DNA from: Isurus oxyrinchus
Lineage: Eukaryota
Length of the DNA stretch: 64,000 nucleotides
Reading direction: 5' to 3'
Assembly: GCA_026770705.1 (NCBI GenBank)
Contig: JANJGN010000121.1
Coordinates: forward strand, 248,001-312,000
A program made the position numbers and the translations under genes. The notes beneath the pieces were generated by a model. That model saw only the letters and a list, made by a program, of their open reading frames with translations, was not told where the DNA came from and searched no databases. Shown piece after piece: positions 25,901 to 59,975 of this stretch (within the stretch, counting starts at the first letter, position 1; each line of letters opens with the position of its first letter).

Positions 25901-28900
25901 TGGATGGACAGAAAGACCAATGAGTGGCTTAGATCAAGAGGAGATGTTCAGCAATTAAAAGGGTTGTTCAGGACAGTTAGAGAGAGAAAGTTCATCAAGT
26001 ACGGAGATTGGAAACGAAGACCTGACAGCCTTGTCCTCACAACCATTGAAGGAGAAACTGAGACCAAAAACAGAAAGGGAGAGGAAAAATTGGATGTGTG
26101 GATAACGTGGACTGAGCGAGGATTGAAGAAAACTGGATTAAAAACAACACGATCCCAATGGCTCCACGGAGACCACGGAGACAACAAACAAACAAATGTA
26201 TCTCCACACTCACATTCCACAGTGATGGTTATGAACCCCTCCACTGCTCCATGTTCATTCTCTGCCACACACTGATAGTCACAACCTGGGCCCCCTCTGC
26301 CCTATCAGGTTGGGATAAACAATCCCAAGGGTCAATACAAGGAAGAGCTCTCCCTGGTCAATATCACTCATTAGAAAAGGACCAGTTTTGTCTTCAACCC
26401 AGTGAAGTTTGTGGAATCTTGCTCTGCACATTGTATCCTAATACCGCTAATAGAAATGAAGGATGTCCATACTTACATTGTACAGTCAGTACGAGGGTCC
26501 GCTCCGATGAAACAGATGGATATCTCACTCTGCAGCTGAGAGTGTGTCCGTGGTGTTTGAGTGATGGGATCAGGGTCAGAACAGAAGTATAGGTCAGAGT
26601 GACACCATGCTGAGTTACAGTGTTTGAGACTGATCCAGGTACGTCAGTGGGAGTGTCCCAGGTTAAGACAGGTGCTGCTGTTCCATTGCACGTTGTGTTG
26701 AAGGTGCAGCTTACATCCACACGCTTTCCTGCAATAATTTCAGCAGGGAATATCGTGGGTTTATTTGTGAAATCTAACAGACAGAGAATGGATCCTTTTA
26801 GAGAAATATAACGTGAAGCATCAGTTCAAATAGAAACCACAGTCCCACAAGAGAAAGCACTTTTACAAGGATGATATCAGAACTGAGAGGTTACAATGAT
26901 CAGGAGAGAATTTCCTATTTTCCGACTTAGTGGAGTTTCTGTCACTCAGATGAATTCACTTCCACTTTGAGACAATTGAATTGACAATCCCAGGTGAGGG
27001 TGGGGGAGCAGCTCACAGTTCCTGACACACTGGCTTGTTACTTTCTCCGAAATCTGCCAGATTTAAATTCTATCCTGTTCCCAGCAGGAGAGAATCCATT
27101 TGAACCAATCACTGAACCGGCATCTAAAGCAGGTGATCAGGTTATTGATCACATCACCTTTTCTGGGAGATTCCTGTGAACAAATTGGCTATTGTGTTTC
27201 CCAGATTACAACAAGGGTTTCATTTCAAGAATTATTTCATTGGTTGTGAATCCAATTGCGATGTACAGAGGTGTTGAAAGGCGCTATAGAAATGCGAATC
27301 TATCTTTTGTCGAAATGTAAGACTGTCATACAGGGTTAGGGAGATCGATGGGAGTGGATAACCTGATAACATTGATGTACACGGTCAATACATTTAATCA
27401 TTGATATTAAAGTGAGTATTAGATGTTGCTTTCAGATTGAACTGGAAGCTATCACCAGGATATTGAGAATCAGACAGTATGTTATAATAAGCTGTGTTTT
27501 GTGTTAATATGTAAACGTCACAGTTTGTGTTATTTCCCATTGAGTGTTGGATGTGAATTGTTGAGTAATTATAACACAGCACTTATCAGAAACGTGAAGC
27601 TGGGTTACAGGGTAATAGTTATGGCTCGGACCATTGTCAAATTCTATTCTGAAAAAATAAGGTCCTGCATCTTCCCGTCTGATGTTGTTTATAATCAGGG
27701 AACAGTCGCCATCTTTCAGGTCTCCAGACAGCCGGGTCCGATGGTGGAACCGTGGTAACTCGTGACTGTGATCCTTGGAGTGAAAGGCTATAGACCATTT
27801 AGACCATTTGTTCTGTATGTACCTCCTCATATACCAGATTCCGACATGTGTTTTCTTTACCAAATGTGATGGGTAACTGTAATGACATGGATCTGTACAC
27901 ACGAACCTTCCTGCGCTGTCACCTCTCATGGAGTGTCACCTTTCCACTCTTGTGACAGTCCAACTGGGGAGAGAAATCTCAATATTTAACTCTGGATGGT
28001 TTGTGGATCCACTGAACCCGATATTTACAGATGAGGCTGAATTGGGGGGATGGTCAATACTGAGGAGAATGGCAACAAATTATTTTGGCAGGAAGAATAG
28101 AAAAACAGGATATTATTTAAATGGAGACAGGCTGCAGAATGCAGTACAGAGGGATCTGGGTGTCCTTGTACATGAATCACAGAAAGTCAGCATTCAGGAA
28201 CACCACGGAATGAGGAAGGCAAGTGGAATGTTGGCCTTTATTGCAAAGGGATGGAGTATAAAAGGAGGGAAGTCTTGCAACAGCTGCACAGGGTGAGATT
28301 GTATCAGGAGCAGTGTGTACAGTTCTGGTCTCCTTACTTAGGGAGGGATAGACTTGCATTGGAGGCAGTTCAGAGAAGCTTCACTGGGCTGATTCCTGGG
28401 ATTAAAGGGTTTGTCCTGTGAGGAAATGTTGAGCAGGTTGGGCCTGTATCCATTGGAGTTTAGAAGAATGAGGGGTGACCTTATTGAAACATATCCGATT
28501 CCGAGGGGGCTTGACAGGGTGGATGCTGGGAGGATGTTTCCCCCTCGTGGGGGAATCTAGAACCAGGGAGCACAGTTTCGGAATGAGGGCTCTCCCATTT
28601 AAGACTGAGATGAGGAGGAATTTCCTCTCTCAGAGGGGCGCTAGCCTGTGGAATTCTCTTCCCCAGAGAGCAGTGGAGTCTGGGCCATTGAATAGACTCA
28701 AGGCTGAGTGAGGCAGGTTTTTGATCGACAAGGGAGTCAAGGGTTTGGGGGACAGGCAGGAAAATGGAGTTAAGGCCACAACCAGATCAGTGAGAGCAGG
28801 CTCGAGGGGCCGAATGGCCTGCTCCTGTCCCTATTTCTTATGTTCCTACATTCTTACCTTCTTAAAATATTAAAGCTGCAGAATAAACATGCAAGTGACT

Positions 28901-31900
28901 GACCCGCTCGACCCACCTTCCATCTGGGGGGCCCATGGGGAGGACCCTTCCTGAGCCAGATCCACCAGCCAACATGGTCTGGATCCGAGAACAGGAGACA
29001 CGGGGGGGAGTGACTAACAGGCTCCTTGTGACAGGCCCCGTCTGTCCAATGGCTGGCTTTCAGCTGCCAAGGCCAGAGTGGTCCTTGCTAAAACCAGCTC
29101 AGGACAGGTCAGGACCCCTGTGCAGACCCCCTCCAGCGCTGCAGCCTCTGTACAAACCCCTCATGCGCTTATGGAGAGACACAAACAAGGCTGCACATTA
29201 CCAAGGAGAATCCCCTCTACGGACTAAGGGGCTGACTCATCACCCTAAACTCAGCAAATGAGGAGGCTCTCGCTCGGTATCGGGGCTTGGCATTCGCTCA
29301 ATAAAAATAATCAAATTACATTTTGGTCAGAAATCTAAGGAGGTTGTACATTCCCTCAAAAATAAGATTCGAGCTGGGGTCGCGGGTCAAAGGGCAACAA
29401 CTTATATTTACACAACAACTTTAACATGACAAATCATCCCAAGGTGCTACACAGGAGCGTCATAAAACAAAGTATGTCACCCAGACACATGTGGAGATAT
29501 TAGCGACAGCTGGCCAGAAGAGGTCGGTGTTATGGAGAATCTTCAAAGAGGGATGAAATGGATAGTGAGAGAGAGAGAGATAGAGATATAGAGAGAGAGA
29601 GACAGAGAGAGTGAGAGAGAGGGATGGAGAGGGGCTGAGGGAGGGTATTACAGAGCTCGGGCCCCAGGCAGCTGAAGGCACGGCCGCCGATGTTGTAGTG
29701 ATGGGACCGGGGGATGGTCAAGAGGCTGGAATTGGATGAGCACAGAGACCTCAGTGGGTTGGAGGGGCTGGAGGAGGTTACAGAGAGAAGGAAGGTTGTA
29801 GTGACTGGGGCAGGTTACAGGGGCAGGGAAAGTTGTCGGGACTGGAGCAGGCTACAGTGATAGGGAAGCTTTTAGGGGCAGGAGGAAGTTACAGAAATAG
29901 GGAGGGTTGTAGTGGCTGGAGGAGGTTGCAGAGATTGGTAGGTTTGTTGGGCAGGATCAATTTGCAGATATAGGGAAGCGTTAGATACTTCAAGAGGTTA
30001 CAGAGAATGGGATGGTTGTAGGTACTGGAGGAGGACGAGGAGATTACAGGGATAGTGAGGAAACAAAGATGAAAATTTGGACATTGAGACTTTGCTTGAC
30101 CAGGAGCCAGTCTTGGTCATCGAGCAGAGCAGGTGATAAGGGAATGGGACTTGGTGTGAGTAAGGACGTGGTCAGCAGTTTTGGATGGCCTCAAGTTTAT
30201 GCAGTGCAGAGCGTGTTGTGGAACAGTCGAGTCTGGAGGTAATGAAGGCGTGGATGACGGTTTCAGCAGCAGATGAGCTGAGACAGGGTGATGTCGTGCG
30301 ATGTTACGCAGGTGGAAATAGACGGTGTTAGTGAGGGCGCAGATATGAGGCCGGAAGCTCATCTCAGGATCAAATGGGACAACAAAGCTGTGAACAGATT
30401 GGCTTCAATCTCAGAGAGCTGCCAGGGAGAGGAATGGAGTTGGTAGCGAGGGAACAGAGTTTGGAGCGGGGAATGAAGGCAATGGCTTCAGTCTTTCCAA
30501 TATTTAATTGGAGGGAATTTCTGCCCATCCAGTACTGGATGTCGGATAAGCAGCCTGATAATTTAGCAGCAGTGGAGGAGTCGAGAGAGGTGGTGGTGAG
30601 GTAGAGCTGGGGATCCTCAGTGGACAGGTGAAAACTAACACTGTTCAGATGATGCTGCAAAGCCATTGCAAGTGATTCTCTGGCTACGATGAGATGGATA
30701 AGAATGGAGCCAGGGGAGAGCAGACCCACCCAGCTGGACGACAGTGGAGAGGTGTTGGAGGAGGATGGTGTGGTCGAGCGTGTCAAAGGCTGCAGACAGA
30801 TCGAGAAGGACGAGGAGGGAAAGTTGACCTTTGTCACAGTCACACAGGATGCCATTTGTGACCTTGATAAGAGCTGTTTCAGCACAGTGGCTGGGGTGGG
30901 AACCTGATTGGAGGGATTCAAACATGGAGTTCCGGGAAAGATGGGAACGGATTCGGGAGATGGAAACACGTTCAAGGACTTTGGAGGTGAAAGAGAGGCT
31001 GGAGATGGGACGGGAGATTACGCAGACGAGCAGAAATAGACAAATCATTGCAAATAGTGACACTGGTTAACACGGCCAAAAAACAAGCAAATCAAACATT
31101 ATTATTTCCCATTGAGTGTTGAATGTGAATTGGTGAGTAATTATAACACAGCACTTACCAGAAACCTGAAGCTGGGTTACAGGGGAAACGTTATGGCTCG
31201 GACGATTGCCAAATTTTATCATGAAAAAATAAGATCCTGCATCTTCCCGTCTGATGTTGTTTATAATCAGGGAACAGTCGCCATCTTTCAGGTCTCCAGA
31301 CAGCCGGGTCCGATGGCGGAACCGTGGCAACTCGCGACTGTGACCCTTGGAGTGAAAGGCTATAGACGATTTAGACCATTTGTTCCGTATGTATCTTCTC
31401 ATTTTCCAGATTCCGACCTGTGTTTTCTTTATCAAATCTGATGGATAACTGTAATGACATGGAATCTGTACACACGAACCTTCCTGCGCTGTCACCTCTC
31501 GTGGAGTGTCACCTTTCCACTCTTGTGACAATCCAACTGGGGAGAGAAATATCAATATTTAACTCTGGATGTTTTGTAGATCCACTACACTCGATATCCA
31601 CCCCCTCCATCACTCGGGCACAGTGGCTGCAGTGTGGACCATCTACAGGACACACAATGAACTCCACAAGGTATCACCCCAGATGGAAGAGAATCCTGGA
31701 CACAAAAGCGGAAAAGTTCATTCTACATTGGTTCATGGTCCTCAGGACCCTGTTTCTGCAGAAGCCTGTTCTCCAACAGAACTGAAGTTGGGGACAATGC
31801 ATTTGGAATTCCACTGTCCGGGGCATTGGGTTAACTTGCTGATTTTGTTTTAAATCTAACATCTATTTTTGGTCTGTTGCCTTAAAGGGAGTGTAACTGG

Positions 31901-42903: not shown

Positions 42904-43226
42904 AGGGCAGGAATCAAGAAGCCCGTTCGCAGGATTACCAACAGAAAGTGAACCACAATTTATACTTAATGGGAAGAGAGTGCTGATTGGTTGGCAAGTG
43001 GTCTCTGATAGGTGGACGTGTTGCCATGGAGAATGGTGTGTGCGAGATGTAAACTTTAGACAGCTTGTCTCTTTATTCAGCAATAATCAAATAAAGATCA
43101 ATTAACTTCAATCGACTGTGAAGCACTTTGAGAGGTCTGAGAATGTGGACACTGAGAACGGGCTGCACTGTCAGAGGGTCAGCGCTGAGGGAGTGCTGAT
43201 GTAGAATGAAAGGTGTATGTACTTAC

Positions 43227-43523
43227 CTTGCACAGTTAGTACGAGGGTCCGCTCCGATGAAACAGATGGATATCTCACTCTGCAGCTGAGATTGTGTCCG
43301 TGGTGTTTGAGTGATGGGATCAGGGTCAGAACAGAAATATAGGTCAGAGTGACACCATGCTGAGTTACAGTGTTTGAGACTGATCCAGGTACGTCAGTGG
43401 GAGTGTCCCAGGTTAAGACAGGTGCTGCTGTTCCATTGCACGTTGTGTTGATGGTGCAGCTTACATCCACATGCTTTCCTGCAATAATTTCAGCAGGGAA
43501 TATCGTGGGTTTATCTGTGAAAT
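43227..43523 (-). CDS. Gene C Siglec domain-2 C-set exon (intact)
   Basis: 297 nt, open, canonical splice sites. Confidence 0.8.
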
Positions 43524-44382
43524 CTAACAGACAGAGAATGGATCCTTTTAGAGAAATATAACGTGAAGCATCAGTTCAAATAGAAATCACAGTCCCACAA
43601 GAGAAAGCACTTTTACAAGGATGATATCAGAACTGAGAGGTTACAATGATCAGGAAAGATTTTCTTGCTCTTTGGCAGTAGTGTTTCTGTCTCTCAGCTT
43701 AATACACGTTCACTCCGAGACATGTGAATTGAGAACACTGGATGAGAGAAGAGGCTCAGACCAGAGATTGGAGTTAAAAGCAGAATACTGCGGATGCTGG
43801 AAATCTGAAACAAAAACAAAAATTGCTGGAAAGACTCAGCAGGTCTGACAGTATCAGTGGAGAGGAAGACAGGGTTAACGTTTCGAGTCCGTATGACTCT
43901 TCATCAGACCAGAGGTTTGAGTTCACTGGCTTCTCATTTCCTCAGTGATCTGGGTGTTTTATCACCTTGTGGTTTGTTGGATCTTGCTGTGCACAAACTG
44001 CCTGCTGTGTTTAACATCTGTGACCACAATTCAGGAATAATTTCATTGGCTGTGAAGGGATTTGGATCCTCCTGAGGTGGTAAATTGCGCTACAGAAATG
44101 CACATCTTTCTTTTATCGATACGTCAGACTTTTAAACAGGACAGGAGAGATTGATGGGTGTGGATAACCTGATAATACAGTTAATGCTTTTCATCATTGA
44201 TATTAAAGTGAGTATTAGAGGTTGCTTTAGGACTGAACTGGAAGCTATCACCAGGTTATTGAGAATCAGACAGTGTGTTATAATAAGCTGTGTTTTGTGT
44301 TAATATGTAAACGTCACAGTTTGTGTTATTTCCCATTGAGTGTTGGATGTGAATTGTTGAGTAATTATAACACAGCACTTAC

Positions 44383-44413
44383 CAGAAACGTGAAGCTGGG
44401 TTACAGGGTAATA
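44383..44413 (-). pseudogene. V-exon 3' stump (YPVTQLHVS) fused to the upstream intron
   Basis: Flanks match gene A 11341-11360 and 11718 onward; about 345 bp including the acceptor are missing. Confidence 0.85.
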
Positions 44414-45104
44414 TAAATGTCAATATTTAACTCTGGATGGTTTGTCAATCCACTAGACTTGATATCCACTCCCTCCATCACTGGGGCACAGTGGCTGCAA
44501 TGTGGACTAACTACAGGACACACAAGGAACTCCCCAAGGTTTCACAATGGATGGAAGAGAATCCTGGACACAGGAGTGGACAAGTTCATTCTACATTGGC
44601 TCATGGTCCTCAGGACCCTGTTTAGTGAAGCCAGTCTTCCACCCAACACAGTGTCTACAAGACACACAGGGAAACTGTGTAAACATCTCATCTCTCTACA
44701 CCGACTGGTTTGGCTTCGGTTTAACTTTCAGTTATTTTACTTCCTTATTGTGGTTGCTATGGTGAAACTGTGCAGGAAGTGTGAGGGCTGGACTCTCTGT
44801 CTATTCTGACTGCAGCTGTGATGTGGTCGTGGTGTTTCTCAGTAAAATGAAACCCTCTGATCTCCTCCATCGCCGAGGTTTAGGGAGTGAATTCCAGAGC
44901 TCAGGCCCCAGGCAGCTGAAGGCACGGCCGCCAGTATTGGAGTGATGGGAATCGGGGGATGGTCAAGAGGCCGGAATTGGAGTAACACAGAGATCTGGGA
45001 AGTTGTTTGGTTGAGTTGCAGGACGTTACAGAGATAAAGAGATAAGAATGATCTTTTACAAAAACTGTTAAACATAAATCTGTCCATACTGACAATGATA
45101 TTAC

Positions 45105-45144
45105 CTTGGAGAAGTGACAGGAGGAAGTAAGATTTCCCGATCAT
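45105..45144 (-). CDS. Gene C proximal signal-peptide exon (MIGKSYFLLSLLQ)
   Basis: Paralog of the other leader exons, intact donor. Confidence 0.7.
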
Positions 45145-45594
45145 TGTCCACTCCCAGATATTCCATCCACTTCTCACTCTCAAGCTGTGAAAGAGAAAAG
45201 AGTTAATGAGACTTCACCTATTGTCCGACAGCTTTCAAGAGATCAGAACAGCTTTTAGACAATATCTTCACAGAATAATTTGATTCTCTGTGGGATGATA
45301 GGTGATCTGCAGAGAGTTACAAGGCTTTAAGAAAGAAAAACAATGAAGGATTTGCATTTCTATCGCAGCTTTCACCTCCTCAGGATGGCCCAAAGCTCAT
45401 GTCTCTGCAGTTCCCTCATCCCTTGAGCTAGAAAGATGTTCTGTACAACAGACTTGAGCCTCACACCCAGATCTCAATAATCAGTAGAAATCTTTCAAAG
45501 GCATCAATCATTGGAATCTGTCTTTATAAAGTCACAACATCAACAAAGGACGGTGTTGGTGGTGGAAGTGAATTCCAATCGTTCCGTTACTTAC

Positions 45595-45736
45595 CCAGTA
45601 CCTGTCCGACTGCTCGCCTGGGGAGGAACTGCCCACACGCTCTGCTTGGGCTGAATGACCTCTTCCTGTGCTGCCCCCTCTGTGTATTTAGTGAGAAAGG
45701 GTTGATGTGTCTCTGTGAGACAAAATGAGGAAGTTG
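45595..45736 (-). promoter_or_regulatory. Putative 5'UTR exon / promoter block copy
   Basis: Copy of 15610-15750 with GAGGAAGT. Confidence 0.45.
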
Positions 45737-45954
45737 GATCAAAGTAACAGAGCAGCTCATGTTTTGAGATGTTGGTGAACTTTGTGTCCTGACCCTGTGG
45801 TGATATTTCTGCTCACAGGTGGACAGTCAATGACCAGGAGTTTCTCCTGTGGGTCAGTGGGTTTCACAGCCAAATTCAGGGGGTCAGAATGTTGTGGGAT
45901 TCAAGACCCGATTCAGGGGACGTCTGCCCCACAGAGTAGACTGAAACTCCCCAG

Positions 45955-46165
45955 TGTCAGTACTGAGCAAGTGCTGCACTGTCGGATGGTCATTACTGAG
46001 CGAGTGTTGCACTATTGTAAGGTCAGTACTGAGGGAGATCTCCACTGTTTGAGGGTCAGTACTGAGGGAGTGCTGCACTGTCAGAGGGACATTAATCAGG
46101 GAGTGCTGCAATGTTGGAGGATCAGTACTGAGGGAGTGCTGCACTGTTGGAGGGTCAGTAGTAAG
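45955..46165. repeat. 33-bp minisatellite, degenerate
   Basis: About 6 units. Confidence 0.8.
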
Positions 46166-46319
46166 GTGCTGATTTACAAGACAGGACAATGGATTAGGAG
46201 CCCTCAGAACTCCCCCCATTATCACCATCATGAATCACTAATTAGCCTAACATTCCTGTCTGCTCTTCAACACAGCTGATTGGCTAATCTGATTCACTAT
46301 CATTGGTGCACTTTGTATG

Positions 46320-46445
46320 TTCATTGTCTAAGGAATCTCTTTGGATCCTCATTGTCTAAGGAATCTCTTTGGATCCTCATGTCTAAGGAATCTTTTTGGA
46401 TCCTCATTGTCTAAGGAATCTCTTTGGATCCTCATTGTCTGAGGG
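46320..46445. repeat. 28-bp tandem repeat (ctcattgtctaaggaatctctttggatc)
   Basis: About 4 units; about 2 units at the paralogous site 13890-13950. Confidence 0.85.
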
Positions 46446-47230
46446 ATTATTTCTGATCCAAACCCCATATTGTTGTATTGTTGATTCCGATGCAGCATTG
46501 TAGACTGACTTGTCCCCAAGCTCAGCACTGAACCTACTCCAGCAGACACTGTGAAACACACTAACAAAGCGCCTCTAGCCTGAGCTCTGCATGTGTCAAG
46601 AGCAAAGACAAATATGCAAACTGAATATTGACACCTTTGCACACAGACAGCTTTACCTTCCTTCTCTCTTTCAGTTATCTTGCTCCCTTATTGAAGTATC
46701 TAGCAAGGTGAGAATGGACAGGAAGTGTGACACTGAACAGCCTGTCTATTCTAGGAGCTGCTGTGTTGTCTTCATGGGAAATTCTGATTAAAATCAGCAA
46801 AAGACACAAATTTCATTCCTTTGCTATCGGAGTCCAAGCATCAGGATAGACTTCATCCCCCAATATTTATCACTGTTTCTCAACTCAACACCTCACGCCT
46901 TCCGCCACTCGCTGACCTGCACTGGCTCCCAGTCCAGCAGAGCCTCGAGTTTAAGATTCTCATCCTCAATTTCCATTCCCTCCATTCCTCTTCTCCAATC
47001 ACTTTCTCCTCCCACCATGCAAACCTCAAAGTCCTCTGCTCTCCTCCAATTCTGCTGTCAGACAGGGAGTCAGTGTATATCAGTGAGCACAGGGGTGATG
47101 GGTGAATGGGACTTGGTGTGAGTTTGTACACTGGCTCACTGCTGAATCTGTTCCCAATCACAGCTCAATAAGAATTATGTTTTACAAAGATGATTAGCCA
47201 TAAATCTATCCAAGCTGACAATGATATTAC

Positions 47231-47270
47231 CTTGGAGAAGTGACAGGAGGAAGTAAGATTTCCTGATCAT
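47231..47270 (-). CDS. Second (distal or orphan) signal-peptide exon (MIRKSYFLLSLLQ)
   Basis: Intact leader copy with no V exon of its own. Confidence 0.6.
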
Positions 47271-47713
47271 TGTCCACTCCCAGGTATTTCATTGGTTCTC
47301 AAGCTGTGAAAGAGAAATGAGTTAATGAGACCTCACCTCTTGTCCGACAGCTCTCGAGAGATCAGAACTGCTTTTAGACAATGTCTTCACAGACTAATTT
47401 CATTCTCTGTGGGATGATAGGTGCTCTGCAGAGAGTTACAAGGCTTTAAGAAAGTAAAACAATGAAGGACTTGCATTTCTATATCACCTTTCCCCTGCTC
47501 AGGACACCCCAAAGCTCTTGTCCCTGCTCTTCCCTCATCCCTTGAGCTAGAAAGATGTTCTGTACAACAGACTTGAGTCTCACACCCAGATCTCAATAAC
47601 CAGTAGAAATCTTTCAAAGGCATCAATCATTGTAATCTGTCTTTATAAAGTCACAACATCAACAAAGGACTTTGTCGGTGGTGGAAGTGAATTCCAATCG
47701 TTCTGTTACTTAC

Positions 47714-49973: not shown

Positions 49974-50090
49974 TTATAAATTCCCATACACAGAATCCTT
50001 GGCAAATTCACAGTTTGCGTAAAGATCATCATCTGTATCAGGATTGACTCCGCGGTTAGATTTCATTTCCAGATCCTTCTCATCTTTCTT
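49974..50090 (-). CDS. Gene D terminal exon (KKDEKDLEMKSNRGVNPDTDDDLYANCEFAKDSVYGNL*)
   Basis: tttctattacag acceptor, phase 0; two Tyr motifs in acidic context; ends in ITIM-consensus SVYGNL. Confidence 0.75.
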   Translation of the reverse strand, partial: KKDEKDLEMKSNRGVNPDTDDDLYANCEFAKDSVYGNL

Positions 50091-53000
50091 CTGTAATAGA
50101 AACAGAAATGATCAGAGTGACAATCAGAGTGATCAGTGTTTAGTATTATTGATCCAAATCGAAAATTCCACCCACAATAGATACATTAATTATTGATACT
50201 GAACAGGGTTTGATTATTGATTCTGAACGGGGTTTGATTATTGATTCTGAACGCGGTTTGATTATTGATTCTGAACGCGGTTTGATTATTGATTCTGAAT
50301 GGGGTTTGATTATTGATACTGAACCGGGTTTGTTTATTGATAATGAACGGGGTGTGATTATTGATTCTGAACGGTGTTTGATTATTGATTCTGAACAGGG
50401 TTTGATTATTGATTCTGAACGGGGTTTGATTATTGATTCTGAACAGGGTTTGATTATTGATTTTGAACGGGATTTGATTATTGATTCTGATCGGGGTTTG
50501 ATTATTGATTCTGAAGGGGGTTTGATTATTGATACTGAACGGGGTTTGATTATTGATTCTGAACAGGGTTTGATTATTGATACTGAAAGGGGTTTGATTA
50601 TTGATTCTGAACGGGGTTTGATTATTGATACTGAATGGGGTTTGATTATTGATTCTGAACAGGGTTTGATTATTGATTCTGAATGGGGTTTGATTATTGA
50701 TTCTGAATGGCATTTGATTATTGATACTGAATGGGGTGTGAATACTGATTCTGAACGGGGTTTGATTATTGATACTGAATGGGGTTTGATTATTGATATT
50801 GAATGGGTTTTGATTATTGATTCTGAATGGGGTTTGATTATTGATTCTGAACGGGGTTTGATTATTGATTCTGAACGGGGTTTGATTATTGATTCTGAAC
50901 GGGGTTTGATTATTGATACTGAACGGGGTTTGATTATTGATACTGAATGGGGTTTGATTATTGATACTGAATGGGGTTTGATTATTGATTCTGAACGGGG
51001 TTTGATTATTGATTCTGAACGGTGTTGGGTGTGAGTTTGGTTGGGTTTGGGAGTGACTGTATAAAACATTGCAGATACAGGACTGGAGCAGCCATATCAA
51101 TAACCAGGCTACTGGAGCAGCTGAGAGGCTGTGGATCCTGTGGTGTGTGACTCACCTGATTCCTCAAAGCCCAACCACGCTCACAGTTTTCATAAACAGG
51201 ACTTCGATGTTCATCAACACGATGGTTCGATTTGATTCCTGCTTTCCCCTCGCCTCTCTTCTGTAATAGAGATGGAAATGGACAGAGTGACAATCAACAT
51301 GATGTGTATTCGGTGTTGGGTTTGATTATTGGGGAGAGAGTTCCAGATTTCCACTCCCCTTTGTGTGAAGAAGTGCTTCCTGACATCACCCCTGAATGGC
51401 CTGGCTCCAATCTGAAGTTCCAGCCCCCTTGTTCTGGACTCCACCCGACCTCCACCACCCACCCCCACCCGAGGGAATAGCTTCTCTCTATCGACCCTAT
51501 CGAGTGTTTAATCAGTTTGAACCCCTCAGTTAGATCCCTCCTTAATCTTCTAGACCCGAGGGAATATAATCGTAGACTGTGTGTAACCTGTCTGCACAAT
51601 TTAACCAGAAAAATGTTCTGTACAACAGACTTGAGCCTCACACCCAGATCTCAATAATCAGTAGAAATCTTTCAAAGGCATCAATCATTGGAATCTGTCT
51701 TCATAAAGTCACAACATCAACAAAGGACGGTGTTGGTGGTGGAAGTGAATTCCAATCGTTCTGTTACTTACCCAGGACCTGTCCGACTGTTCGCCTGGGG
51801 AGGAACTGCCCACACGCTCTGCTTCGGCTGAATGACCTCTTCCTGTGCTGATCCCTCTGTGTATTTAATGAGAAAGGGTTGATGTGTCACTGTGAGTCAA
51901 ATCAGGAATTGGGGAACAATTGTGAAAACACTTTCATTGAAACGTTGGGCCTTAGTGTTGTGTTGTAAACAAACTGTTAACCCTTTGTGTCCTGACTCTG
52001 TGACGTGATTCCTGTGTAAAGCTGAGCAGTCGTTGAGCGAGTTTCAATTCACTGCTCACTCCAGGTGTTGAGGTGGATCTTCTGAAGGAGCAGATGTTGC
52101 TCAGCACTCCTTAAAAATGTGAGATACTGAACAACGTGTAAGAGGATGAGAGAGAGAATGAGAAGGAGAGCATTAGTGGAGATAGGAGAGAGAGTGAATG
52201 AGAGAGAGAATTAGAAGGAGAGCATTAGTGGAGATTGGAGAGAGAGGGAATGAGAGAGATAATGAGAAGGAGAGCATTAGTGGAGATAAGAGAGAGAGTG
52301 AATGAGAGAGAGAATGAGAAGGCGTGCATTAGTGGCGATAAGAGAGAGTGAATGAATCATGGAAAATGGAAAGAGATTGCATTCACTAACAAAAGAAAGG
52401 TTTTTATTTGTATAGCAGCATTCACAAACTCAGGAGGTCAGAAGCTATTTTATGGTCCGGGTCAACACTGCCAGTTACAGGACTGAGTTGTGAAACAGTG
52501 AGTGTTGGATGAGATGTTAAACACTAGGTGAACATCAAAACTCTTCAGGGACTGCGAAGGGTTTTGGATTGTAAAAGGTGCTATAGAAATGCAAGTTCTT
52601 TCTATAAGGAGAGAAGTTTGAAGAAAACATTTTCAAAAACAACCAATTAAACCTTCACACTTACTTTCTCACACACTTGAAAATGAAGAATCCACTCAGT
52701 CCAACACTCAAACAGATTCCAGCTCCAAGCAATCCTGCTTTCCATTCATTGGAATCTCGCCCTGTAAAATCAGCCAATGAATGACTCCGGTACAGTTTGA
52801 GAATGGTTCCCTATGTACATGTAGTAATTCTGAACTTGTGAAGTGATATTGTCTATGCATGAAAGGTCTATACAAATAACATTTATCTATGTAATATTTA
52901 TTGATAATATCCATGTACATGCAGGTTTCTATAAGGAGGATTCACATATAACAGAGGTGCCAAGCTGCTGAGGTGACACACAGGACTACATACACACCAA

Positions 53001-56000
53001 ACAGCGGAAACAACATGCTATAGACAGAGCAAAGCGATCCCACAACCAACGGGTCAGATCTAAGCTCTGCAGTCCTGCCACATCCAGTCATGAATGGTGA
53101 TGGACAATAAAGATCTAACAGGAGGAGGATGTTCCACAAATATCCCCATCCTTAATGATGGGGGAGCTCAGCACATCAGTGCAAACAACAAGGCTGAAGC
53201 ATTGGCAACCATGTTCAGCCAGAAGTGCTGAGTGGATGATCCATCTCGGCCTCTTCCAGAGGGTCCCAGCATCACAGATGTCAGCTTTCAGACAATTCGA
53301 TTGACTCCACGTGACATCAGGAATCAGCTGATGATACTGGATACAGCAAAGGCTATTGGCCCTGGCAACAACCCAGCAACAGGAAATAATGTGGCTACAA
53401 GAGCGGGTAAGAGGCTGGGAACTCTGCAGTGAGTAATTCAACTCCTGACCCCCCAAAGCCTGTCCACCATCGGACAAGGCACAAGTCAGGAGTGTGATGG
53501 AATAATCTCCACTTGGCTGGATGAGTGCAGCTCCAACAACACTCAAGAAGCTCGACACCATCCAGGAGCAGCTTGTTTGATCGACAGCCCAGCCACCAGC
53601 ATAAACATTCATACCCTCCACCACTGGCACACAATGGCAGCAATGTGCACCATGTACAAGATGCGCTGCAGCAACTCACCAAGGCTCCTTCGACAGCACC
53701 TTCCAAACCCTTAACCTCATCCACCAAGACAGTTCCAAGTCAGTGAGGTGTGTGACTTGGAGGCGAACTTGAGGTGGTGGTCTGCCCTGGGACTTGGAAC
53801 TATATCGGCCGTTCCTTCACCGTCTCTGGGTCAAAATCCTGGAACTCCCTCCCTAACAGCACTGTGGGTGTACCTACACCACATGGACTGCAGTGGTTGA
53901 AGAAGGCAGCTCACCACCACCTTCTCAAGGGGCAGTTACAGATGGGCAATAATTTCTGGCCTTGTCAACAATACTCACATCCCATGAGCTAATAATAAGA
54001 GAACGTTCAATTCTGTGTAACTCACGTTCCACAGTGATGTTTATGAATCCCTCCACTGCTCCATGTTCATTCTCTGCCACACACTGATAGTCTCCAGTGT
54101 CCCTGGATGTAACGTGAGGAATCACCAACCACAGCTCATTGTTGGAACTTGTTCTGTTCATTGGGACATTAAGATGTCGCCACATCAGGTTAGAAGCTGG
54201 GAAGCTCTCGACAGAGCAGATTATCACTGCAGAATTCCCCTCAATTATAATGATCGATGAAGCGTTAATCATATCAAGAAAATTAATTGAGAGATTCTGT
54301 GGTGCATCTATAAACAAATAAACATCAATTAAGTTACACTGACTGTGAAGCACTTTGAAAGACACTTAGAATGTGAAAGGTATGATCTCAATGTAGGTTC
54401 ATTTTCACAAAGCCCGTAATCCAGGCAGAGACTTCAGTTCAGTACTGAGGGAGTGCTGCACTGTCAGAGAGTCAGTACTGAGGGAGTGCTGCACTGTCAG
54501 AGAGTCAGTACTGAGGGAGCACTGCACCGTCAGAGGTTCAGTGCTGAGGGAGTGCGGCACTGTCAGAGGGTCATTACTGAGGGAGTGCTGTACTGTTGGT
54601 GGGTAAGTACTGAGGGAGTGCTGCACTGTCAGAGAGTCAGTACTGTGGGAGTGCTGTACTGTCAGAGGTTCAGTACATAGGGACAGCTGCACTGTCTGAT
54701 GGTCAGTCCAGAGGGGGTGCTGCACTGTTGGAGGGTCAGAACTCGGGGGGTGCTGCAGTGTGGGAGGGCCAGTACTGAGGGAGCACTGCACTGTTGAAGA
54801 GTCAGTACTGAGGGAGTGCTGCACTATCGAAGGTTCAGAACTGAGGGAGTGCTGCAGTGTTGGAGATTCAGTATTTAGGGACTGCTGCAGTGTCAGAGGC
54901 GAATTTGTATCAGTTAAAGACTATTGATTTGTTGCTAAACACAATGCAGTTGTGGGATCTTGCAGTGTACTATGTAGAGCTTTCTAGCTAATGTAGATGG
55001 AAGGGTGTCCGTTCTTACCTTGCACAGTTAGTACGAGGGTCCGCTCCGATGAAACAGATGGATATCTCACTCTGCAGCTGAGAGTGTGTCCGTGGTGTTT
55101 GAGTGATGGGATCAGGGTCAGAACAGAAGTATAGGTCAGAGTGACACCATGCTGAGTTACAGTGTTTGAGACTGATCCAGGTACGTCAGTGGGAGTGTCC
55201 CAGGTTAAGACAGGTGCTGCTGTTCCATTGCACGTTGTGTTGAAGGTGCAGCTTACATCCACACGCTTTCCTGCAATAATTTCAGCAGGGAATATCATGG
55301 GTTTATCTGTGAAATCTAACAGACAGAGAATGGATCCTTTTAGAGAAATATAACGTGAAGCATCAGTTCAAATAGAAACCACAGTCCCACAAGAGAAAGC
55401 ACTTTTACAAGGATGATATCAGAACTGAGAGGTTACAATGATCAGGAGAGCATTTCCTGCTTTGACACTTTGGTGTTTCTGTCTCTCAGCTTAACACACG
55501 TTCACTCCGAGACACTTGAACTGATAATAGTGGGTGAGGGTGGAGGAGCAGACCAGAGTTTGGAGTGCACTACCCCATCATTCACTCAGCGATCTGGGCC
55601 ATTTATTACTTTGCAATTTGTGGGAGCTTGCTGTGCGCAAATTGGCTGCTGTGTTTCTCACATTACAACAGTAACTACAATTCAGGAATCAGCTCATTGG
55701 CTGTGAAGTGATTTGGTACGTTCTGAGGTGGTGAAAGGTGCTATAGAAATGTGAATCTTTCTTCTGTCGATATGTCAGGCTTCGAGACATTAGAGATTAG
55801 GATTAGAGAGATCGATGGGAGTGGATAACCTGATAACATTGATGGACACTGTCAATATATTTAATCATTGATATTAAAGTGAGTATTAGAGGTTGCTTTA
55901 GGACTGAACTGGAAGCTATCACCAGGATATCGAGAATCAGACAGTGTGTTATAATAAACTGTGTTTTGTGTTAATATGTAAACGTCATAGTTTGTGTTAT

Positions 56001-59000
56001 TTCCCATTGAGTGTTGAATGTGAAATGTTGAGTAATTATAACACAGCACTTACCAGAAACGTGAAGCTGGGTTACAGGGTAATAGTTATAGCTCGGAGCA
56101 TTGTCAAATTCTATTCTGAAAAAATAAGGTCCTGCATCTTCCCGTCTGATGTTGTTCATAATCAGAGAACAGTCGCCATCTTTCAGGTCTCCAGACAGCC
56201 GGGTCCGATGGTGGAACTGTGGTAACTCGTGACTGTGATCCTTGGAGTGAAAGGCTATAGACAATGTTCTCCGTTCCTCATTATTAAACCAGACTCCAAC
56301 TCGTGGTTGGTTTTCCAGACACGATGGATAACTGTAATGACATGGAATCTGTACACAGGAATCTTCCTGCGCTGTCACCTCTCGTGGAGTGTCACCTTTC
56401 CACTCTTGTGACAGTCCAACTGTGGAGAGAAATCTCAATATTTATCTCTGGATGTTTTGTGGATCCACTGAACCCGATATTTACAGATGAGACAGAATTT
56501 GGAGGATGGTTAATACTGAGGAGAATGGCAACAAATTATTTTGGCAGGATGAATAGAAAAACAGAATATTATTTAAATGGAGACAGGATGCAGAATGCAG
56601 TACAGAGGGATCTGGGTGTCCTTGTACATGAATCACAGAAAGTCAGCATTCAGGAACACCACGGAATGAGGAAGGCAAGTGGAATGTTGGCCTTTATTGC
56701 AAAGGGATGGAGTATAAAAGGAGGGAAGTCTTGCAACAGCTGCACAGGGCGTTAGTGAGATTGTAACAGGATCATTGTGTACAGGCAGTTCAGAGAAGCT
56801 TCACTGGGCTGATTCCTGGGATTAAAGGGTTTGTCCTGTGAGGAAATGTTGAGCAGGTTGGGCCTGTATCCATTGGAGTTTAGAAGAATGAGGGGTGACC
56901 TTATTGAAACATATCCGATTCCGAGGGGGCTTGACAGGGTGGATGCTGGGAGGATGTTTCCCCCTCGTGGGGGAATCTAGAACCAGGGAGCACAGTTTCG
57001 GAATGAGGGCTCCCCCATTTAAGACTGAGATGAGGAGGAATTTCCTCTCTCAGAGGGGCGCTAGCCTGTGGAATTCTCTTCCCCAGAGAGCAGTGGAGGC
57101 TGGGCCATTGAATAGACTCAAGGCTGAGTGAGGCAGGTTTTTGATCGACAAGGGAGTCAAGGGTTTGGGGGACAGGCAGGAAAATGGAGTTAAGGACACC
57201 ACCAGATCAGTGAGAGCAGGCTCGAGGGGCCGAATGGCCTGCTCCTGTCCCTATTTCTTATGTTCCTACATTCTTACCTTCTTAAAATATTAAAGCTGCA
57301 GAATAAACATGCAAGTGACTGACCCGCTCGACCCACCTTCCATCTGGGGGTCCCATGGGGAGGACCCTTCCTGAGCCAGATCCACCAGCCAACATGGTCT
57401 GGATCTGAGCACAGGAGACACGGGGGGGGGAGTGACTAACAGGCTCCTTGTGACAGGCCCCGTCTGTCCAATGGCTGGCTTTCAGCTGCCATGGCCAGAG
57501 TGGTCCTTGCTAAAACCGGCTCAGGACAGGCCAGGACCCCTGTGCAGACCCCCTCCAGCACTGCAGCCTCTGTACAAACCCCTCATGCGCTTGTGGAGAG
57601 ACACAAACAAGGCTGCACATTACCGAGGAGAATCCCCTCTACGGACTAAGGGGCTGACTCATCACCTTAAACTCAGCAAATGAGGAGGCTCTCGCTCGGT
57701 ATCAGGGCTTGGCATTCGCTCAATAAAAATAATCAAATTACATTTTGGTCAGAAATCTAAGGATGTTGTACATTCCCTCAAAAATAAGACTCAAGGCTGA
57801 AGGAACAACTGCCGATGTTGGAGTGATGGGATCGGGGGAAGGTCAAGAGGCTTGGATTGGAGGAGCGCAGAGACCTCATATGGTTGGAGTGACTGGAGGA
57901 GGTTACAGAGATAGGAAGGGTTGTACGGTCTGAAAAAGTTAAGAGAGATTGGGAGAGTGTAGGGTCTGGAGGAGATTACAGAGACAGTGAGGGTTGTAGT
58001 GATTGGAGGAGTTACAGAGATAGCGAGGGTTGTAGCGGCTGGAAAAGTTAAGAGAGATTGGGAGAGTGTAGGGTCTGGAGGAGTTTGCAGAGGTAGGGAG
58101 AGTTGTAGTGACTGGGGCAGGTTACAGGGGCAGGGAAAGTTGTCAGGACTGGAGCAGGCTACAGAGATAGGGAAGCTTTTAGGGGCAGGAGGAAGTTACA
58201 GAAATAGGGAGGGTTGTAGTGGCTGGAGGAGGTTGCAGAGATTGGTAGGTTTGTTTTGGCAGGATGAATTTACAGATATAGGGAAGTGGTAGAGGCTTGA
58301 AGAGGTTACAGAGAATGGGATGGTTGTAGGTACTGGAGGAGGACGAGGAGATTACAGGGATAATGAGGAAACAAAGATGAAAATTTGGACATTGAGACTT
58401 TGCTTGACCAGGAGCCAGTCTCGGTCATCGAGCAGAGCGGGTGATAAGGGAACGGGACTTGGTGTGAGTAAGGACGTGGTCAGCAGTTTTGGATGGCCTC
58501 AAGTTTATGGAGTGTGGAGCGTGTGTTGGAACAGTCGAGTCTGGAGGTAATGAAGGTGTGGATGAGGGTTTCAGCAGCAGATGAGCTGAGACAGGGTGAT
58601 GTCGTGCGATGTTACGGAGGTGGAAATAGACGGTGTTAGTGAGGGCGCAGATATGAGGCCGGAAGCTCATCTCAGGATCAAATGGGACAACAAAGCTGTG
58701 AACAGATTGGCTTCAATCTCAGAGAGCTGCCAGGGAGAGGAATGGAGTTGGTAGCGAGGGAACAGAGTTTGGAGCGGGGAATGAAGACAATGGCTTCAGT
58801 ATTTCCAATATTTAATTGGAGGGAATTTCTGCCCATCCAGTACTGGATGTCGGATAAGCAGCCTGATAATTTAGCAGCAGTGGAGGAGTCGAGAGAGGTG
58901 GTGGTGAGGTAGAGCTGGGGATCCTCAGTGGACAGGTGAAAACTAACACTGTTCAGATGATGCTGCAAAGCCATTGCAAGTGATTCTCTGGCTACGATGA

Positions 59001-59975
59001 GATGGATAAGAATGGAGCCAGGGGAGAGCAGTCCCACCCAGCTGGACGACAGTGGAGAGGTGTTGGAGGAGGATGGTGTGGTCGAGCGTGTCAAAGGCTG
59101 CAGACAGATCGAGAAGGACGAGGAGGGAAAGTTGACCTTTGTCACAGTCACACAGGATGCCATTTGTGACCTTGATAAGAGCTGTTTCAGCACAGTGGCT
59201 GGGGTGGGATCCTGATTGGAGGGATTCAAACATGGAGTTCCGGGAAAGATGGGAACGGATTCGGGAGATGGAAACACATTCAAGGACTTTGGAGAGGAAA
59301 GAGAAGCTGGAGATGGGACGGGGGTTTACACGGACAGTGTGAGGGGTGAAAGGTGTAGTGGGGAGGAGATACTTCACTCAGGGGGGAGGTGTCATCACCC
59401 CTCAGCTCGGTTTACATTACAGCTATGATGTGGATTCAATCACACACAATAAGCTCATGGATCTGGGAGCAGAAATAGACAAATCATTAAAAATAGTGAC
59501 GCTGGTTAACACGGCCAAAAAACAAGCAAATCAAACACTATTATTTCCCATTGAGTTTTGGATGTGAATTGTTGAGTAATTATAACACAGCACTTACCAG
59601 AAACCTGAAGCTGGGTTACAGGGGAAACGTTATGGCTCGGACGATTGCCAAATTTTATCGTGAAAAAATAAGGTCCTGCATCTTCCCGTCTGATGTTGTT
59701 TATAATCAGGGAACAGTCGCCATCTTTCAGGTCTCCAGACAGCCGGGTCCGATGGCGGAACCGTGGTAACTCGTGACTGTGTCCCTTGGAGTGAAAGGCT
59801 ATAGACCATTTAGACCATTTGTTCCGTATGTACCTTCTCATTTTCCAGATTCCGACATGTGGTTTCTTTATCAAATCTGATGGATAACTGTAATGACATG
59901 GAATCTGTACACACAAACCTTCCTGCGCTGTCACCTCTCGTGGAGTATCACCTTTCCACTCTTGTGACAATCCAA
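49974..59975 (-). CDS. Gene D (spliced, leader off-window): Siglec-like receptor, V(Arg-less)-V(Arg)-C-C2-TM-tail with three YxN motifs
   Basis: Exons 59598-59975, 56054-56419, 55019-55315, 54026-54307, 52665-52761, 51772-51856, 51156-51260, 49974-50090. With a 40-nt leader they sum to 589 codons in frame. Confidence 0.75.
50188..51022. repeat. 24-bp minisatellite (ggtttgattattgattctgaacgg), about 35 units
   Basis: Fills most of the last intron of gene D. Confidence 0.95.
51156..51260 (-). CDS. Gene D cytoplasmic exon (KRGEGKAGIKSNHRVDEHRSPVYENCERGWALRNQ)
   Basis: ctctattacag acceptor, CAG|gtgagt donor, phase 0-0; paralogous to the terminal exon. Confidence 0.7.
51772..51856 (-). CDS. Gene D candidate 85-nt cytoplasmic exon (GISTGRGHSAEAERVGSSSPGEQSDRSW)
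   Basis: Open reading, phase 2 in and phase 0 out, exactly bridging the TM and YEN exons; same sequence as the putative 5'UTR exon of genes A-C; acceptor is weak. Confidence 0.5.
52145..52355. repeat. About 52-bp purine-rich tandem repeat
   Basis: gagagagaatgagaaggagagcattagtggagata repeated 4 times. Confidence 0.85.
52665..52761 (-). CDS. Gene D transmembrane exon (RDSNEWKAGLLGAGICLSVGLSGFFIFKCVRK)
   Basis: 97 nt with the same boundaries as the A/B TM exon but diverged sequence. Confidence 0.85.
52935..53990 (+). mobile_element. Non-LTR retrotransposon fragments
   Basis: Degenerate ORF2-like peptide (KAEALATMFSQKC..DDPSRPLPEGPSIT..LDTAKAIGP) followed by the same 3' end as 21475-21950. Confidence 0.65.
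54026..54307 (-). CDS. Gene D single C2 exon (same family as the gene A array)
   Basis: 282 nt, phase 1-1. Confidence 0.88.
54435..54900. repeat. 33-bp minisatellite
   Basis: About 14 units; only about 2 units at the paralogous site 10000-10065. Confidence 0.9.
55019..55315 (-). CDS. Gene D Siglec domain-2 C-set exon
   Basis: 297 nt, open, canonical splice sites. Confidence 0.9.
56054..56419 (-). CDS. Gene D proximal V-set exon with the essential Arg (YFFRIE)
   Basis: 366 nt, close paralog of the gene A V exon; extra Cys in YPSCLE. Confidence 0.9.
59598..59975 (-). CDS. Gene D distal V-set exon lacking the essential Arg (YFFTIK)
   Basis: 378 nt, intact, close paralog of 31159-31536. Confidence 0.88.

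Follow-up and report, generated by a model that had tools for sequence, protein, structure and literature searches.

A tandem V-set Siglec-like receptor gene of Isurus oxyrinchus with a predicted disulfide between its two V domains

The main product of gene D of Isurus oxyrinchus is probably a Siglec-like receptor of the build V1-V2-C-C-membrane-tail, in which the outer V-set domain (V1) is stapled onto the inner one (V2) by a predicted disulfide, a reading to which we assign a probability of about 0.68. The proposed bond would join the spare cysteine of V1 to a cysteine in the BC loop of V2, copying the disulfide between domains 1 and 2 of Siglecs and giving a fixed head. On this proposal the inner V of elasmobranchs gained a cysteine at the place where domain 2 of Siglecs has one, so that it may accept a bond from the domain above and offer its own spare cysteine to the domain below. 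V domains would thereby be stackable, and up to seven intact V exons have been seen.

The window analysed is a stretch of 64,000 nucleotides (G000:C121:248001-312000) in which gene D lies on the minus strand. Its exons and the sites discussed below are, in window positions except for the leader:

L001:2299-2260, 1.3 kb past the window end: leader exon, the sole leader of gene D
59598..59975 (-): V1 exon, outer V-set domain, 378 nt, with Thr at the sialic-acid Arg site
59911..59913 (-): −5 Cys codon of V1, equivalent of CD33 C36 and MAG C37 (numbering as in the available text of PMC6669322), proposed donor of the V1-V2 disulfide
59659..59661 (-): ACG (Thr) codon of V1 at the essential Arg site
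56420..59597 (-): V1-V2 intron, 3178 nt, mostly repeat-derived, with no leader exon
56054..56419 (-): V2 exon, inner V-set domain, 366 nt, with Arg retained and an extra BC-loop Cys
56319..56321 (-): TGT codon of the V2 +7 Cys, proposed acceptor of the V1-V2 disulfide
56115..56117 (-): AGA codon of the essential F-strand Arg of V2
55019..55315 (-): first C-type Ig exon (Ca), equivalent of Siglec domain 2, with its +6 inter-domain Cys at 55230-55232
54026..54307 (-): second C-type Ig exon
52665..52761 (-): transmembrane exon, a hydrophobic stretch free of charged residues
51772..51856 (-): cytoplasmic exon 1, phase 2-0, resembling the tail of basking shark protein P0010
51156..51260 (-): cytoplasmic exon 2, with the Tyr motif PVYENC
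49974..50090 (-): last coding exon, with DLYANC and the C-terminal SVYGNL, which we take to be ITIM-like by the ITIM consensus

Spliced in this order, the leader, both V exons, two C-type exons, the membrane exon and three tail exons form one open frame of 588 aa, all nine exons being intact. An earlier note on this DNA had described two intact phase 1-1 V exons that each begin with the end of a signal peptide, and the coordinates, borders and frames agree with it: both exons are open and in phase 1-1, are bordered by AG acceptors and GTAAGT donors, and start with (V)GLSQEW, the signal-peptide end. That an Arg-less V precedes an Arg-bearing one also holds, V1 reading YFFTIKF and V2 YFFRIEF. 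Two fused genes, with a leader between V1 and V2, could be ruled out from the lack of any leader exon in the intervening intron. With its C-type domains, single membrane span and tyrosine-motif tail gene D has the build of a Siglec, and it is likely to signal in an inhibitory manner via the tail tyrosines. Among the five near-identical copies examined on other contigs, four have both V exons intact and one has a partial V1. A minisatellite (window 50186-51026) is found in the intron separating the last two tail exons.

The Siglec character of the extracellular domains is evident at several levels. All of the top 18 matches of V2 to solved structures are Siglecs (best E 8.5e-14), a homologue model superposes on sialoadhesin with Z 17.7 and an rmsd of 1.8 over 115 aligned residues, and in alignments with Siglec-5 and Siglec-8 the Arg of V2 (YFFRIEF) falls on their F-strand Arg. 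The alignment also includes the intra-sheet B-E cysteine pair that Siglecs have instead of the common B-F pair, given as C41-C101 for CD33 in the available text of PMC6669322, with C26 and C87 invariant and Phe at the F-strand Cys site. The spare cysteine at −5 occurs in 39/39 intact V exons counted and is invariant in alignment A2. As had been noted earlier for domain 2, the inter-domain Cys of Ca lies at +6: this exon reads SCTFNTTC, and its +6 Cys aligns with the second Cys of domain 2 in CD33 and MAG. The essential F-strand Arg, present in V2, is replaced by Thr in V1, the N-terminal V of gene D, for which reason the gene is termed Siglec-like, as is done for Siglec-XII. V2 would be the sole gene D domain able to engage sialic acid in the canonical manner; V1, whose C-C' loop is basic and Trp-rich and which has Asp at +7, may serve as a cap, or may bind another ligand via its basic loop. 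The two V exons share 86% likeness at the DNA level, which points to a duplication or exchange inside the shark family.

The proposed acceptor, the cysteine of the V2 motif IPCHYSYPSC seven residues past the B-strand Cys, had been thought unique to V2. Its presence at +7 is confirmed, although it is anything but unique, since the exact 26-base Cys-type motif has 234 matches in the genome (a number that haplotype duplicates may inflate) and the residue was found in homologues from 10 shark and ray genera. What it follows is position in the chain. A survey of 873 kb of the same contig (C121:48001-921000) listed 42 units, 36 of which combine a leader with a complete V and a C exon, and 11/36 of these have two to four V exons; the other six, in which no leader lies close by or no complete V is present, were left out, and one broken V without a C exon is unlisted. 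In this cluster the +7 Cys is carried by 11/14 later V exons, 0/11 first, 0/17 intact single and 2/8 broken single V exons, the later exons not being independent counts, as they share one upstream-intron class with which the Cys could travel. Two tandem units among the six excluded fit the pattern as well. A database set of 84 shark and ray relatives longer than 219 residues, made up of predicted gene models that include isoforms of the same locus, holds tandem V domains in 30/84; here the Cys is seen in 38/47 later, 0/26 first and 1/53 single domains, nine domains not being scorable, and the only single domain that bears it has no signal peptide and begins like a later V. Every taxon with tandem models (11/11), two rays among them, has the residue. 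Among 121 alignment columns +7 is by far the most position-linked (45/56 later vs 1/98 tip domains). Departures from the pattern comprise the later V domains without the Cys (9/47 in the database and 3/14 in the own cluster), which include the final V in each of the two rays and a chain reading D-C-D-C-H-H-C, and a Cys-bearing V directly after the leader in four white shark models (P0103, P0105, P0107 and P0111). The pattern recurs in two long arrays:

L014-L015, C52:1871380-1887050: seven-V array
L017-L019, C189:689526-705201: seven-V array, the two being probably mutual copies

One has the Cys in 6/6 later exons and its probable copy is identical in pattern; their later V exons all combine Arg and Cys, one exon being split by a tile border. 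By its sequence distribution, the +7 Cys is a mark of non-first position and part of a family-wide design of which gene D is one ordinary example.

It is a separate question whether the residue was kept for its position or merely carried there. The 3' part of the intron ahead of V2 belongs to a class seen only before later V exons, and V2 itself is a mosaic, its upstream intron and Cys region resembling later exons and its C-C' region resembling single exons at 95-97.5%. On a rival account the Cys is a passenger of a duplicated later-V cassette, the tandem exons being unselected by-products of a fast-duplicating cluster and gene D perhaps little used. The single upstream-intron class common to later exons, the many broken exons in the cluster and independent contrasts on supported branches that do not reach significance (p 0.5-1, with three supported pairs in one set and four in another) would all suit this account. 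However, the Cys has been maintained across sharks and rays, no other column follows position nearly as well, and the residue remains while neighbouring parts of the exon are exchanged; gene D, moreover, is intact over its nine exons and both V exons are intact in 4/5 of its closest copies, and we consider the passenger account decidedly unlikely. A start of EPSQ in place of the signal-peptide end, found in 8/14 later vs 0/36 tip exons, suggests an adaptation of exon starts to the inner place, V2 itself keeping GLSQ.

What the cysteine may do is suggested by known Siglecs. According to the available parts of the two structural papers, domains 1 and 2 are joined by C36-C169 in CD33 (PMC6669322) and by C37-C165 in MAG (PMC5150538), in both cases from the −5 Cys to a Cys in the BC loop of domain 2. 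As Ca has the +6 Cys, V2 and Ca make an ordinary Siglec pair, so that only V2 could offer a partner to the spare Cys of V1, and its +7 Cys occupies the equivalent loop. The ectodomain accordingly counts 12 cysteines with both V domains, all of them pairable, as against nine without V1 and eight without V2. Predicted structures bear on the geometry. In an initial model of a V-V-C protein (P0104) the V1-V2 linker has a pLDDT below 50, so that the V-V angle is uninformative, and the Siglec matches are not taken by V1-V2. An AlphaFold2 model of a V-V protein of the basking shark (P0011, pTM 0.48), in which residues 17-261 were superposed as one unit, matches domains 1-2 of Siglec-10 with Z 14.9 and an rmsd of 3.8 over 209 aligned residues, and CD33 with Z 15.1 and an rmsd of 4.8 over 206, to be read in view of model pTM values of 0.48-0.54, a low-confidence linker and the possibility that AlphaFold2 copies known Siglec geometry. 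The same pair superposes at 4.5-5.1 A on Siglec-5, 7.5 A on MAG, 7.8-8.0 A on JAML and 13-17 A on Fab chains (both domains aligned), and the V2-Ca pair of a homologue model superposes at 2.9-3.8 A on CD33 and Siglec-10. The predicted V-V stacking thus resembles that of Siglec domains 1-2 and fits the proposed bond. The suggestion in the earlier note that the two cysteines could pair is in this way backed by the position of the residue, by the even and odd Cys counts and by the predicted geometry.

The same V-V protein could also use its extra Cys otherwise, bonding to its counterpart in another receptor molecule, or to a different partner, to form a covalent dimer and leaving the V1 Cys free. 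Precedent exists in that unpaired C36 of CD33 makes intermolecular disulfides (available text of PMC6669322), and an unpaired Cys is tolerated in tandem-V proteins of other vertebrates. Dimerisation would, however, leave unexplained why first and single domains, where the residue would be most exposed, avoid it, and the predicted stacking is that of Siglec domains 1-2. We give this arrangement only a very slight chance.

A further question is whether both V exons enter the same transcript. In mutually exclusive exon clusters of the Dscam type, joint inclusion is barred by steric constraint, reading frame or spliceosome class, or competing docking and selector RNA pairings operate. No such bar exists in gene D, in which the intron measures 3178 nt, both V exons are multiples of 3 and the GT-AG donor class is the same. 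A docking/selector scan (L021) returned 18 inverted pairs of 72-87% complementarity, the longer ones in the repeat-rich intron and none at both acceptors. The earlier note had raised a switchable head as an alternative to the double-V protein, with cells choosing V1-only, V2-only or both and so altering sialic-acid binding on one tail, as in CD33. Both exons are indeed symmetric and begin with the signal-peptide end, which V2 keeps, so that V1 could be skipped; the V1-only form would have an even Cys count of eight, and gene B, a paralogue described below, retains an Arg-less first V above a dead second V. Among gene models, the first V of P0012 is missing from white shark isoform X4 (P0103), and the isoforms of the catshark differ in the V exons used. 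CD33 provides the precedent, its symmetric V exon being skipped in CD33m with removal of sialic-acid binding (available text of PMC8615218). Against this stand the freedom of the two exons to be included together and the exposed free Cys of a V2-only form, of a kind carried by 0/28 intact tip domains here, while all 15/15 isoforms listed for the basking shark retain the same 7 V domains.

Transcript evidence consists of contigs from runs guessed to be RNA (18 such runs were listed, none being on record as RNA), in which paralogues number in the hundreds and joints are unassignable to gene D: a V-to-C joint is bridged in 4/4 runs, and in 4/4 runs of one sample, leader-to-V in 3/4 and leader-to-C in 1/4, and a V-end to V-start joint in runs X1 and X7, where the letters mark paralogues. 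V-V splicing thus occurs within the family. The leader joints agree with head switching, yet they fit single-V and V-deleted paralogues equally well because the exon start is common to them. In four runs of one sample at 97% likeness, the joints listed included none at the borders of V1 itself, and none specific to V1 was found among the 15 listed of more than 400, in contigs so rich in paralogues that absence is not demonstrable. A regulated head switch is not supported, and as the main function of the tandem exons it appears unlikely given the absence of exclusivity and the free thiol of a V2-only product; what stands is the skipping of a first V in the white shark model. Minor V-skipped transcripts probably exist, but not as the organising principle, which we take to be the joint V1-V2 head.

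Loss of the sialic-acid Arg follows chain position too, being limited to first domains (6/11 first vs 0/28 other intact exons). The six Arg-less first domains form one clade in a tree of shark and ray domains only, which implies that the Thr/Met type of loss was one event; the Arg-less motif has 53 exact matches in the genome, and in the database set first domains of other species have Arg or Lys in 30/30. A second loss, distinct from the Thr/Met type, is seen in the seven-V arrays, whose first V carries Ser at this position.

The closest architectural parallel is Siglec-12, described in the available text of PMC7876704 as unique among Siglecs in having two V domains. Like gene D, Siglec-12/Siglec-XII has two N-terminal V-set domains on C-type domains, a tyrosine-bearing tail and an outer V that has lost its Arg. 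Human Siglec-XII has lost the Arg in both V domains (R122C in the outer one; available text of PMC7876704 and PMC6288428), whereas in gene D it has been retained in V2. At +7 of V2, the Siglec-12 of a snub-nosed monkey has Tyr rather than Cys, and the shark genes, of which there are hundreds, have anywhere from one V exon to seven or more. The comparison with Siglec-12 made in the earlier note therefore holds for the two-V architecture and is architectural only, the monkey protein examined being free of the extra Cys. With CD33 and MAG the proposal shares a spare Cys at −5 that pairs with a BC-loop Cys of the domain following it, but its partner sits in a V-set domain at +7 and not in a C-type domain at +6, the linker is two residues longer, and the link could be repeated along the chain. 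CD33m differs in that CD33 has a single V, gene D having two and a choice of head that is only proposed.

Among 137 newly listed representatives, several of whose domains were not parsable, tandem-V Siglec-like models occur in frogs, bony fish, a turtle and a lynx, and 19/20 of the later domains scored in other vertebrates have no BC-loop Cys, the exception carrying one at +4. One protein, P0129 (1128 aa), has seven tandem V domains that carry Ser where the −5 Cys would be, which may be the converse way of dealing with a spare cysteine. A literature search, whose coverage extended little into subscription papers, returned nothing on shark multi-V Siglecs or on the +7 Cys, and Siglecs are named once in the available text of the whale shark genome paper (PMC8455134).

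Gene D belongs to a very large Siglec-like expansion, a V2 query giving 150 scored matches among 1062 first-look candidates, spread over contigs C52, C71, C121, C150, C189 and others, although these numbers may be raised by haplotype duplicates. Among named relatives, proteins of the basking shark and the white shark come closest. At C52:2282412-2296516, eight Cys-type V motifs recur at a spacing of about 2.04 kb, which suggests that one gene there has eight or more inner V exons. Within the window, gene A (2150-10490) has its second C-type exon in seven full, near-identical tandem copies plus fragments. Gene B (27587-31536) is a paralogue whose first V is intact and Arg-less (Met) and whose second V is dead through a stop, a frameshift and a lost donor. 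Gene C (43213-47286) contains two leader exons, and of its V exon only about the last 37 bases survive, a deletion that could explain the leader-to-C joints.

Sharks and rays hold many multi-V genes in which the problem of the spare cysteine has apparently been solved by a residue missing from the tandem-V proteins of other vertebrates. More tentatively, and with rather less than even confidence, the family may have arrived at a stackable Siglec V module that builds stiff rods of up to 7-8 sugar-binding domains, some 50 copies of which in this genome would be capped by an Arg-less, basic outer domain reading a non-sialic ligand, making a two-input receptor in a gene family numbering hundreds. 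If the bond is real, it would provide a simple rule for the building of multivalent Siglecs, and with it a direct test of whether the inner V binds sialic acid beneath its cap.
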